A stretch of DNA of 64,000 bases from Escherichia coli (GTDB taxonomy: Bacteria > Pseudomonadota > Gammaproteobacteria > Enterobacterales > Enterobacteriaceae). How positions within the stretch are numbered: position 1 is the stretch's first letter; each line of letters starts with the position of its first letter. The stretch lies in assembly GCF_044324875.1 (NCBI RefSeq), contig NZ_CP172185.1, one strand, 5' to 3'. Shown here piece by piece: positions 2,698-29,160 of this stretch. The translations under genes and the position numbers were made by a program. The notes below the pieces were generated by a model. It was not told where the DNA came from. It did not search any database and saw only the letters and a list, made by a program, of their open reading frames with translations.

Positions 2698-2731
2698 TCG
2701 ATATGCCGGATCCGGTGTTTGATACACGATG

Positions 2732-2793
2732 GCTGATGCGATGCTGGCGCATCTTATCTGGCCTACGGGGGGGTAGGGCACGCCACATCCGGC
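2732..2793. repeat. REP (repetitive extragenic palindromic) elements between the convergent aer and yqjI
   Basis: GCTGATGCGATGCTGGCGCATCTTATCTGGCCTAC matches the REP consensus, followed by a partial second REP-like unit. Confidence 0.55.
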
Positions 2794-4520: not shown

Positions 4521-4596
4521 TGGTGGCCCCTGCTGGACTTGAACCAGCGACCAAGCGATTATGAGTCGCCTGCTCTAACCACTGAGCTAAGGGGCC
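4521..4596 (-). tRNA. ileX: tRNA with anticodon CAT of the Ile2 (lysidine-modified) type
   Basis: Reverse complement GGCCCCTTAGCTCAGTGGTTAGAGCAGGCGACTCATAATCGCTTGGTCGCTGGTTCAAGTCCAGCAGGGGCCACCA: 76 nt, cloverleaf-compatible, anticodon loop CUCAUAA, encoded CCA end. Confidence 0.9.
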
Positions 4597-5255: not shown

Positions 5256-5305
5256 GCGGAGGGACTAGTGCCGGGTGCGGCGTAACACCTGATCCGGCCT
5301 ACCGA

Positions 5306-15974: not shown

Positions 15975-16064
15975 TTTTACAGCTGTTAAACCAAACGGTT
16001 ATAACCTGGTCATACAGCAGTAGTTCGGACAAGCGTTACATTTTTATAATTTAGGGGTTTATTG

Positions 16065-16886
16065 ATGAGCGATATGCACTCGCTGCTGATAGCGGCAATA
16101 TTGGGTGTGGTCGAAGGATTGACAGAATTTCTGCCGGTATCCAGCACGGGCCATATGATTATTGTCGGTCACTTGTTGGGATTTGAGGGCGACACGGCGA
16201 AAACCTTTGAAGTGGTGATCCAGTTAGGATCAATTCTGGCGGTAGTAGTGATGTTCTGGCGGCGTCTGTTTGGCCTGATTGGCATCCACTTTGGCCGCCC
16301 GTTGCAGCACGAAGGAGAAAGCAAAGGCCGTTTAACGCTGATCCACATTTTGCTGGGGATGATTCCGGCGGTGGTACTGGGGCTGTTGTTCCACGACACG
16401 ATTAAGTCGTTGTTTAATCCAATAAATGTGATGTATGCGCTGGTCGTTGGCGGTCTGTTGCTGATTGCCGCTGAATGCCTGAAACCAAAAGAACCGCGTG
16501 CGCCGGGTCTCGATGATATGACCTATCGTCAGGCGTTTATGATTGGCTGCTTCCAGTGTCTGGCGCTGTGGCCGGGTTTCTCTCGCTCCGGGGCGACCAT
16601 TTCAGGTGGGATGCTGATGGGGGTGAGCCGTTACGCTGCTTCCGAGTTTTCGTTCCTGCTGGCGGTGCCGATGATGATGGGCGCAACGGCGCTCGATCTC
16701 TACAAAAGCTGGGGCTTCCTGACAACCGGCGATATCCCGATGTTTGCCGTTGGGTTTATCACCGCTTTTGTGGTGGCGCTGATAGCGATTAAAACCTTCC
16801 TGCAATTGATTAAGCGCATTTCGTTTATACCGTTCGCCATTTATCGCTTTATTGTGGCGGCTGCGGTGTATGTCGTGTTCTTTTGA
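16065..16886 (+). CDS. uppP: Undecaprenyl-diphosphatase (BacA/UppP)
   Basis: 273-aa membrane ORF from the ATG at 16065 (track ORF starts 3 nt upstream at TTG). Confidence 0.92.
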
Positions 16887-16904
16887 GGTAAAGAACAGTG
16901 TCGG

Positions 16905-17060
16905 ATGCGTGGAATTGTCAACGATTGCGTAGGCCGGATAAGGCGTTCACGCCGCATCCGGCAATCAACGCCTGATGCGACGCTCGCGCGTCTTATCAGG
17001 CCTACAACTGTCGTTGACATGTAGCCGGATAAGGCGTTTACGCCGCATCCGGCAAAATAT
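16905..17060. repeat. BIME: cluster of three REP palindromes between uppP and cca
   Basis: GCCGGATAAGGCGTTCACGCCGCATCCGGC (16934-16963), GCCTGATGCGACGCTCGCGCGTCTTATCAGGCCTAC (16971-17006) and a second GCCGGATAAGGCGTTTACGCCGCATCCGGC (17025-17054). Confidence 0.75.
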
Positions 17061-17067
17061 CCAACAC

Positions 17068-18306
17068 TCACTCAGGTTTTGGGCAACGCTGTTCCTTCCA
17101 GCTGGCTACCGCCGCAATCCGCCGTCGGGTCAGCTCCTCGCGAATCTCCACACCTTTAAATCCCGCTTCAACGACGGCTTTTGTCGGCACTGACTGTGCC
17201 ACTTCCCAGGCTTCGCGCAACCAGCGGCCTTGCGGGTAGTCCGCTGATTCAAAACCGGTTCTGCCGCGCACATCAGCCTCACTGGTCAGCGCCAGTTGCT
17301 CGACACGCTGCGGTTTACGCCAGGCGTCAATGGAATCAAACAATTTGACGATGGTTTTTGGGTTCAGCATTGGGAAGGTGTGGATGAGATCGTGAAACTC
17401 AGCCACCAGTCTGGCTAAATCGCGAATTTCATTTGGCACGCGCAGACGCTGACAGAGTTGTTCCACTAACTTAACACCCGCCGGGCCATGACCATGATGA
17501 CGCGGCCAAAGTTCTGGTGGCGTCAGTCCTTTACCGAGATCGTGGCATAACGTCGCAAAACGGACATCGACCTGCGGACTTAGCATCGCCGCCATGGAGA
17601 GCGTCATTAAGGTATGAATACCGGTGTCGATTTCCGGATGCCACCTGGCAGGGGCCGGAACGCCAAACAGGGCGTCAATTTCCGGGAATAAAACGCGCAG
17701 TGCGCCGCAATCGCGCAGTACCTGGAAGAACACCTGGGGATTGCGGGTAGTGAGGGCGCTTTCCGTCTCTTTCCACACCCGTTCAGGCGTCAGGTGTTCC
17801 AGTTCACCCGCGTGGGTCATCTCGCGCATCAGCGCCAGAGTTTCATCGGCAATACGAAAACCGAGGTGGGCATAACGCGCAGCAAAACGCGCCACGCGCA
17901 GTACGCGTAACGGATCTTCGCCAAAAGCGGGGGATACATGGCGCAACAGACGATTTTGCAGATCGCCCAGACCGTTGTACGGGTCGATAATCTCGCCGTT
18001 ATCGTCCTGGGCCAGCGCATTAATGGTCAGATCACGACGCTGAAGATCATCTTCCAGCGTGACATCCGGTGCGGCATAGCAGGTAAAACCGGTGTAACCG
18101 GAACCGGATTTCCGTTCGGTACGTGCCAGCGCATACTCTTCATGCGTTTGCGGATGCAGAAAAACAGGAAAATCGCGGCCTACCTGCTGGTAGCCCGCGT
18201 CGAGCATCTCCTGTGGCGTACTGCCGACCACCACCCAATCTCTGTCTTTGACCGGTAGCCCTAACAATGCATCCCGAACAGCACCACCGACCAGATAAAT
18301 CTTCAC
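17068..18306 (-). CDS. cca: CCA-adding tRNA nucleotidyltransferase with HD phosphohydrolase domain
   Basis: 412-aa ORF with the GGAVRD head motif and an HD domain. Confidence 0.95.
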
Positions 18307-24921: not shown

Positions 24922-24949
24922 TTGACGCTGTTTTTTTTCAACCTAAAGT
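24922..24949 (+). promoter_or_regulatory. Sigma-70-type promoter of the repeat-1 antisense RNA: TTGACG-N16-TAAAGT
   Basis: -35 TTGACG (24922-24927), 16-bp spacer, -10 TAAAGT (24944-24949); duplicated in repeat 2. Confidence 0.5.
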
Positions 24950-24956
24950 AAAGGAA

Positions 24957-25104
24957 CAAGGGTGAGGGAGGATTTCTCCCCCCTCTGATTGGCTGTTAAT
25001 AAGCTGCGAAACTTACGAGTAACAACACAATCAGTATGATGACCAGCTTCATCATAACCCTTTCCTTATACAAGGCCCCTTCTTCGGGAGGGGCTTTCCC
25101 GTTT
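24957..25104 (+). ncRNA. sibE: Sib-family antisense sRNA (antitoxin), repeat 1; ends are approximate
   Basis: Inferred transcript from the promoter to an intrinsic terminator (8-bp stem GCCCCUUC / GGAGGGGC with UUCG tetraloop at 25075-25094, then a U-rich tract); fully complementary to the 19-codon ORF on the opposite strand. The D versus E label rests on recalled K-12 gene order. Confidence 0.55.
24996..25055 (-). CDS. ibsE: Ibs-family type I toxin, 19-aa hydrophobic peptide MMKLVIILIVLLLVSFAAY
   Basis: Minus-strand ATG ATG AAG CTG GTC ATC ATA CTG ATT GTG TTG TTA CTC GTA AGT TTC GCA GCT TAT TAA, preceded by SD AAGGAAAGGG. Below the 60-aa cutoff of the ORF track. Confidence 0.7.
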   Translation of the reverse strand: MMKLVIILIVLLLVSFAAY

Positions 25105-25296: not shown

Positions 25297-25325
25297 TTGA
25301 CGCTGATTTTTTTTCAACCTAAAGT
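25297..25325 (+). promoter_or_regulatory. Sigma-70-type promoter of the repeat-2 antisense RNA: TTGACG-N17-TAAAGT
   Basis: Same hexamers as repeat 1 with one extra base in the spacer. Confidence 0.5.
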
Positions 25326-25332
25326 AAAGGAA

Positions 25333-25481
25333 CAAGGGTAAGGGAGGATTTCTCCCCCCTCTGAATTGGTTGTTAATAAGCCTGGAAACTTACTAGTAAC
25401 AACACAATCAGTATGATGACGAGCTTCATCATAACCCTTTCCTTCTATAAGGCCCCTTCTTCGGGAGGGGCTTTCCCGTTT
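25333..25481 (+). ncRNA. sibD: Sib-family antisense sRNA (antitoxin), repeat 2; ends are approximate
   Basis: Promoter-to-terminator inference as for repeat 1 (hairpin at 25452-25471 with UUCG loop); complementary to the second 19-codon ORF. Confidence 0.55.
25373..25432 (-). CDS. ibsD: Ibs-family type I toxin, 19-aa hydrophobic peptide MMKLVIILIVLLLVSFQAY
   Basis: Minus-strand ATG ATG AAG CTC GTC ATC ATA CTG ATT GTG TTG TTA CTA GTA AGT TTC CAG GCT TAT TAA with the same SD as repeat 1. Confidence 0.7.
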   Translation of the reverse strand: MMKLVIILIVLLLVSFQAY

Positions 25482-28913: not shown

Positions 28914-29160
28914 GCTTATTCTCAGGGCGGGGCGAAATTCCCCACCGGCGGTAAATCAACTCAGTTGAAAGCCCGCGAGCGCTTTGGGTGCGAACTCAAA
29001 GGACAGCAGATCCGGTGTAATTCCGGGGCCGACGGTTAGAGTCCGGATGGGAGAGAGTAACGATTCTGTCGGGCATGGACCCGCTCACGTTATTTTGGCT
29101 ATATGCCGCCACTCCTAAGACTGCCCTGATTCTGGTAACCATAATTTTAGTGAGGTTTTT
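28914..29160 (+). promoter_or_regulatory. sroG: FMN riboswitch (RFN element) in the ribB leader
   Basis: Conserved FMN-aptamer blocks present: CAGGGCGGGGCGAAAUUCCCCACCGGCGGUA, GCCCGCGAGCG, GCCGACGGUUAGAGUCCGGAUGGGAGA, followed by the expression platform and SD GAGG. Confidence 0.85.

Follow-up and report, generated by a model that had tools for sequence, protein, structure and literature searches.

The locus between uppP and cca in Escherichia coli raises the question of what occupies the space in which these two convergent genes end, and whether it does anything for either of them. The window that we analyzed is a stretch of 64,000 nucleotides, and the 581 bases around the gap in question are 100% identical to the chromosome of E. 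coli 042 (NC_017626.1). The genes on either side are as follows.

16065..16886, plus strand: uppP (bacA), undecaprenyl-diphosphate phosphatase (NCBIfam NF001388, E = 3e-161; an 822-bp bacA in the RefSeq annotation of 042)
17068..18306, minus strand: cca, multifunctional CCA-adding/repair enzyme (NCBIfam NF008137, E = 1e-222; also in the RefSeq annotation)

The TGA stop codon of uppP is located at 16884-16886 and the stop codon of cca, on the minus strand, at 17068-17070. The convergent gap therefore spans 16887-17067 and is 181 bp long, and an earlier note on this DNA had placed it correctly. The program-made list of open reading frames starts uppP at a TTG at 16062-16064, one codon before the annotated ATG (274 vs. 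273 amino acids), which is an artefact of the open-reading-frame rule. The earlier note had further described the gap as filled by a BIME of three REP palindromes in alternating orientation. REPs are non-autonomous, high-copy palindromic repeats, which are thought to be made and rearranged by a REP-associated tyrosine transposase (TnpA-REP/RAYT) that acts on single-stranded hairpins with a 5′ GTAG and a mismatch in the stem. Catalogues of REP and BIME elements in E. coli go back to the 1980s; the RefSeq records of K-12 (NC_000913.3) and 042 (NC_017626.1) hold no repeat feature for the BIME at this locus.

We scanned both strands of the full 64-kb window by fuzzy matching to Y, Z1 and Z2 consensus sequences after Gilson and Bachellier. 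Three matches were found in the gap.

16929..16963, plus strand: REP1, Y type with a 5′ GTAG (0 edits to the Y consensus; hairpin of −12.2 kcal/mol as DNA)
16969..17005, minus strand: REP2, Z2 type, inverted (2 edits to the Z2 consensus; hairpin of −11.4 kcal/mol)
17021..17054, plus strand: REP3, Y type, GTAG-CCGG with one G missing (2 edits to the Y consensus; hairpin of −12.3 kcal/mol)

The consensus scan, which the earlier note had proposed as a check, thus recovers all three units, and their order (+ − +) is the alternation that had been described. The REPs lie in the spacer as claimed but do not fill it: together they amount to 106 nt and, from the first to the last, cover 126 nt (70% of the 181 bp), leaving 42 nt on the left and 13 nt on the right. 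The element is entirely extragenic, between the stop codons of uppP and cca. The stem of REP1 (16933-16962) contains an AA/GC internal mismatch, and the stem of REP3 occupies 17024-17053; the two units form a 32-nt direct repeat of 97% identity, 91 bp apart. With GTAG at 16929-16932 and at 17021-17024, and CTAC (as read on the plus strand) at 17002-17005, the tetranucleotide is present at the stem foot of every unit, and an internal stem mismatch is visible in all three REP folds.

It is also evident that these palindromes are not a product of chance. The 17-nt 5′ half of the REP, GTAGGCCKGATAAGNCG, matches the window 4 times with at most two mismatches, whereas 0.06 matches are expected from shuffles. 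Folding of the whole gap against dinucleotide shuffles gives z = −7.9 for the plus strand and −9.3 for the minus strand. As a standard independent of these consensus sequences we used the curated Rfam family RF02564 (naRNA4, a Y+Z2 REP pair), the model of which derives from the Y+Z2 units of REP325. The match covers 16932-17002 with 83.1 bits (gathering score 59.5), and model positions 1-32 align with REP1 and 46-77 with REP2, so that both hairpins are matched almost base for base; a second and a third partial match, of about 40 bits, stay under the gathering threshold. Of 5,426 E. coli genomes, 5,425 contain the segment, at no fewer than 199,036 places in all (median per genome, at least 39), and one plasmid match coincides exactly with REP1. 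Because the REP matches in the scans are far above expectation, chance palindromes are excluded, and the identity of the element as a three-REP BIME is real. Nor does a small protein account for the gap. Two open reading frames, at 16841-17071 (minus strand, 76 amino acids) and 16975-17193 (plus strand, 72 amino acids), exist mechanically, but they have no family match, they run through repeats present in hundreds of copies per genome and both are destroyed in other alleles of the locus. We thus give next to no credence to a reading of the gap as chance palindromes or as a small-protein gene. The rest of the window contains only two more REPs, both isolated and with 4 edits each: one Z2-like at 2730-2766 (minus strand) and one Y-like at 5269-5302 (minus strand), which by coordinate mapping to the annotation would lie near aer/nfeR and mug/rpoD, respectively.

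The sequences around and between the three units are also structured, and the left flank contains the remnant of another unit.

16899..16909, minus strand: vestigial fourth REP, TGTCGGATGCG, the 5′ part of an inverted Z2-type unit, just past the uppP stop
16914..16928, no strand assigned: left linker of the AATTGTCAACGATTGCG type, containing TGTCAACGA and kept in E. albertii, E. whittamii and Escherichia sp. E1V33
16964..16968, no strand assigned: 5-nt linker ATCAA, joining the GGCA ends of REP1 and REP2
17006..17020, no strand assigned: 15-nt linker AACTGTCGTTGACAT, from the CTAC of REP2 to the GTAG of REP3

The sequence TGTCGGATGCG is complementary to CGCATCCGGCA of REP1 and REP3. At its position a complete REP is found in strain M-17, in strain 98222 and in Escherichia sp. 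MOD1-EC7003 (the gap of the last was read by eye; MAFFT set its left Z2 against the central Z2), and TGTCGGATGCG in 042 is therefore a vestigial fourth unit. Its hairpin is no longer there, as 16895-16930 folds no better than shuffles. Where the fourth REP is intact, its stem begins about 13 nt past the uppP stop codon.

The linker between the Y and Z2 units, at 5 nt, is 6 nt shorter than that in the RF02564 model. An inverted repeat of 9-10 nt, TGTCAACGA (16916-16925) and TCGTTGACA (17010-17019), brackets the Y-Z2 pair, and in the minimum-free-energy folds of both strands the left linker pairs with 17010-17019. In these predicted folds REP1 pairs with REP2, and TGTCAACGA/TCGTTGACA lengthen the stem into one long composite hairpin, with the hairpin of REP3 standing separately. 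The two linkers are thus inverted copies of each other, whereas a simple tandem array would give direct repeats. In Pseudomonas, REP doublets that form long hairpins are said to have been described by Bertels and Rainey under the name of REPINs. The composite hairpin predicted here, formed by REP1, REP2 and a flanking inverted repeat, resembles them, but the sequence family of REPINs and their associated RAYT clade differ from those of the Escherichia element. In strain M-17, REP3 (compared with 17032-17045 of the window) carries a paired change in the inner stem, from GGCG...CGCC to GACG...CGTC, which keeps the hairpin; this change could be compensatory or could reflect conversion from another REP copy.

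Two classes of BIME have been distinguished. BIME-1 consists of Y and Z1 with a long L linker, often with an IHF site, and occurs in single copies, whereas BIME-2 consists of Y and Z2 with a short linker and occurs in variable numbers of tandem copies (Ton-Hoang et al., PMC3333891). The Y-Z2-Y order with short linkers of 5 and 15 nt therefore makes the uppP-cca element a BIME-2, arranged as (vestigial Z2)-linker-Y-5 nt-Z2-15 nt-Y. It shares with other BIME-2 elements, namely REP325 in yjdM-yjdN, sucC-sucB and tldD-yhdP, the alternating Y and Z2 units, the GTAG at the stem foot, the stem mismatch and the short linker, together with an extragenic 3′ location and a copy number that varies among strains. 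It differs from REP325 in size (1.5 units and a vestige compared with 6 units) and from the known examples in that these lie within an operon, whereas the uppP-cca element lies between convergent genes. Binding of TnpA-REP needs a GTAG at the stem foot and a mismatch in the stem (Ton-Hoang et al., PMC3333891), and both of these features are present in all three units.

The alternative that the element is of the BIME-1/RIP type and recruits IHF through a linker site is one that we consider highly improbable. BIME-1 (RIP/RIB) is also made of inverted REPs including a Y unit, and the short linker lies within a single near-match to the IHF core, AATCAACGCCTGA at 16963-16975. However, the consensus scan found no Z1 unit in the gap, the linkers of 5 and 15 nt are not the long L linker with an IHF site by which BIME-1 differs, and the exact IHF core consensus WATCAANNNNTTR has 0 matches in the gap. 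The near-match has one mismatch, with its TTR part broken, and such one-mismatch sites occur in the window at a background rate of about 1 per kb. The statement of the earlier note that elements of this kind can bind IHF is therefore inapplicable to the uppP-cca copy, and the gap should be labeled a BIME-2 of the gyrase type rather than an IHF-binding BIME-1. Gyrase cleavage sites are over-represented in BIME-2 and favor Y units (PMC6379681). By class, the gyrase association would apply to the uppP-cca BIME as well, as a candidate site only.

We then consider how the BIME-2 might act. No promoter-like (sigma-70) site is found in the gap; the single one in 16500-17500 is a weak site at 17471, inside cca. 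No intrinsic terminator, scored as a hairpin followed by a T-run, is found in 16500-17500 either. With neither a promoter-like site nor an intrinsic terminator, the gap is likely transcribed as the 3′UTR of uppP on the plus strand and of cca on the minus strand. The sequences that follow the REP hairpins are AAAATAT on the plus strand and TACATGT on the minus strand; an intrinsic bidirectional terminator was considered and rejected, as no U-run follows the hairpins on either strand.

The match to RF02564 invites another reading, that the gap is the gene of an independent small RNA like naRNA4, associated with the nucleoid and acting with HU to condense the chromosome. The segment 16932-17002 does score above the gathering score of the family, and a 2015 mBio paper puts the share of E. 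coli REPs that are transcribed at about 80% (PMC4550694). RF02564 in effect models any Y+Z2 REP pair, however, and a match therefore shows REP identity rather than function. The gap itself has no promoter-like site, as noted above. Moreover, REP325/naRNA4 was without effect on nucleoid volume or on REP-REP contacts, and no stable ternary complex of HU, DNA and naRNA4 was found (Harris et al. 2026, 10.64898/2026.03.23.713779). We consider a naRNA4-type function very improbable at this locus. Annotation based on cmscan would nevertheless tag the BIME as "naRNA4", with the risk that it is misread as a small-RNA gene.

The reading that we favor is instead that of a dispensable BIME-2 which most likely serves both genes as a 3′UTR hairpin block or leaky terminator and is possibly a gyrase site; taken as a whole, it is very probably correct. 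Messages from uppP and from cca would each carry the BIME in their tail, and its stable GC-rich hairpins would hinder 3′-to-5′ exonucleases and, whichever way transcription runs, stop it leakily and with partial dependence on Rho. The upstream messages would thereby be protected and antisense read-through into the opposite gene would be limited. As DNA, the BIME-2 would be favored for cleavage by gyrase, above all in its Y units, and the positive supercoiling that builds up where two genes converge could be relieved there. REPs are tolerated between convergent 3′ ends, which is where this copy lies. RNA stabilization, termination, gyrase binding and dependence on RAYT are plausible here by analogy with other REPs described in the literature. 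REP325 is a partly Rho-dependent terminator and a strong stabilizer of the upstream message (Harris et al. 2026, bioRxiv 10.64898/2026.03.23.713779). A REP is present in about 30% of E. coli convergent gaps, and expression is higher for the gene pairs concerned (Harris et al. 2026, 10.64898/2026.03.23.713779). The same preprint also describes REP effects as dependent on context, with terminal REPs not generally tied to longer half-lives (Harris et al. 2026, 10.64898/2026.03.23.713779). By gene name and K-12 coordinate prefix, the supplements of Sutormin 2019 and Harris 2026 hold no gyrase cleavage, Rho, terminator or RNA data for this locus, and their sole entry on the locus genes is one uninformative differential-expression row for cca.

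The element is far from uniform within E. coli. We compared six E. coli strains at the locus, and five alleles were found.

Allele A (042 and K-12): gap of 181 or 180 bp (3,203,130-3,203,309 in K-12), with the vestige and Y-Z2-Y
Allele B (M-17): gap of 187 bp, with four REPs
Allele C (MEI2B-1023): gap of 89 bp, lacking precisely the 91 bp that separate the direct Y copies
Allele D (98222): gap of 80 bp, with the leftmost REP alone, next to uppP
Allele E (BL21/Rosetta and strain C): gap of 162 bp, with a different GC-rich inverted repeat and no REP

The BIME is contained in alleles A, B and C, to which 2,841 (about 52%) of the 5,426 complete E. coli genomes belong, with an intact fourth REP in 349 of them. 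The single REP of allele D is found in 1,203 genomes (about 22%) and the other repeat of allele E in 1,260 (about 23%); about 120 genomes were left unassigned. The interval therefore bears out the expectation of strain-to-strain length variation, since the strain comparison that the earlier note had proposed shows 4, 3, 1 or no REP units depending on the allele, in gaps of 187, 181/180, 162, 89 and 80 bp. Allele C directly displays the simplest route of such change, recombination or slippage between the two Y copies. By folding, no E. coli allele is without a stable hairpin. The repeat of allele E consists of two inverted GC-rich units, containing CTCCCTCGCTCTGTAGGGAGAGGGCCGGGGTGGGGG and CCCCTCACCCTAACCCTCTCCCCGAAGGGGCGAGGGG, which occur at about 5 places per genome and fold as one long hairpin; it may resemble the E. 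coli repeats known as "Box C" or "RSA".

To place these alleles in the family, we collected 78 Enterobacteriaceae loci, one genome per species, by a degenerate DNA pattern for the UppP C-terminus. In all 78 loci cca converges on uppP. In most species of Enterobacter, Klebsiella, Kluyvera, Leclercia, Lelliottia and their relatives, the gap is 9-14 bp long and holds no palindrome. With the stop codons just 9-14 bp apart, each transcript must therefore end inside or past the opposite gene, and the BIME is an insertion relative to the ground state of the family. Salmonella and Citrobacter have gaps of 42-109 bp with one or two REP-like palindromes of their own, which bear GTAG/CTAC ends. Their gaps contain an inverted Y-like unit adjoining uppP, with or without a Z1-like unit, unlike the Y-Z2-Y of Escherichia, and these palindromes cannot be aligned as orthologues of it; Salmonella and Citrobacter gained REPs at uppP-cca independently. 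In E. albertii, E. whittamii and Escherichia sp. E1V33, by contrast, the gap is 180-182 bp long and holds the same vestige and Y-Z2-Y. The arrangement of allele A is therefore old, or else it has been shared by recombination across species. The BIME is absent from nearly half of the E. coli strains and from most of the related genera; it is therefore dispensable for uppP and cca function, and any function that it has is arguably modest.

The gap of 042 is 91-92% identical to those of E. albertii and E. whittamii, whereas third codon positions of cca are 79-80% identical. This difference hints at constraint on the gap or at homogenization with other REP copies, and conservation above the neutral level could come from gene conversion with other REPs or from recombination between species rather than from selection. 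These considerations bear on a serious rival to our reading, that the BIME is purely selfish or neutral repeat DNA which persists since convergent 3′ ends tolerate insertions; we regard it as a real, if minority, possibility. The polymorphism of the locus agrees with it: there are alleles with just one REP, others with a repeat of a different kind, and one from which recombination between the Y copies has removed Z2-Y. The lack of any repeat in many genera agrees with it as well. The RAYT-driven dynamics of REPs point in the same direction (PMC3333891). On the other side, Y-Z2-Y has been kept in E. albertii, E. whittamii and E1V33 at 91-92% identity against about 80% at cca third positions, and REPs are linked genome-wide to expression at convergent pairs (Harris et al. 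2026); both points are suggestive only.

A different role would follow if REP3 mainly lowered the translation of cca. By analogy with REPs at other genes, its hairpin near the stop codon would stall the terminating ribosome and lead to cleavage of the mRNA and tagging by tmRNA. On the cca transcript 14 nt (17054-17067) separate the end of the REP3 stem from the cca stop, and this spacing is identical in K-12, E. albertii, E. whittamii and E1V33. PMC12306157 quotes Liang, Rudd and Deutscher (2015) for the report that REPs at most 15 nt from a stop codon stall terminating ribosomes and lower translation; our 14 nt runs from the stem end to the stop. However, alleles D and E, which make up about 45% of the strains, and the genera with a 10-bp gap have no hairpin at such a distance, and we find this role for REP3 rather unlikely.

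A stronger version would make Y-Z2-Y, with REP3 at 14 nt from the cca stop, a selected and allele-specific tuner of the output of Cca (and of UppP). On this view, Y-Z2-Y has been retained since before the split of E. coli, E. albertii and E. whittamii and has changed more slowly than nearby synonymous sites, and it is therefore possibly a selected tuner. It would act through ribosome stalling at the cca stop codon together with bidirectional protection of the transcript ends. If this were true, the three common forms of the gap in E. coli (the BIME-2, the lone REP by uppP and the unrelated GC-rich repeat) would give strains heritably different levels of Cca and UppP without any change in coding sequence or promoter. 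We hold such tuning to be quite doubtful, and we retain the reading of a dispensable 3′UTR hairpin block.

So read, the uppP-cca BIME is an ordinary element of an already known kind, a copy of which is also present in K-12. It carries little weight beyond correct annotation, in which the two spurious open reading frames and the Rfam "naRNA4" match should not be taken as genes. The locus does offer a natural allele series, from the 10-bp gap of other genera to the 1, 3 or 4 REPs or the other repeat of E. coli, and this series is a possible test bed for the debate on what REPs do between convergent genes.

Elsewhere in the window, structured RNAs of other kinds were found. Two tandem Sib antitoxin RNAs at 24922-25070 and 25297-25447 on the plus strand (Rfam RF00113, 145 and 142 bits) lie opposite two annotated 19-amino-acid Ibs type I toxin genes. 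An FMN riboswitch at 28914-29062 on the plus strand lies upstream of ribB (RF00050, 121 bits), and a tRNA at 4524-4596 on the minus strand is annotated as tRNA-Ile.
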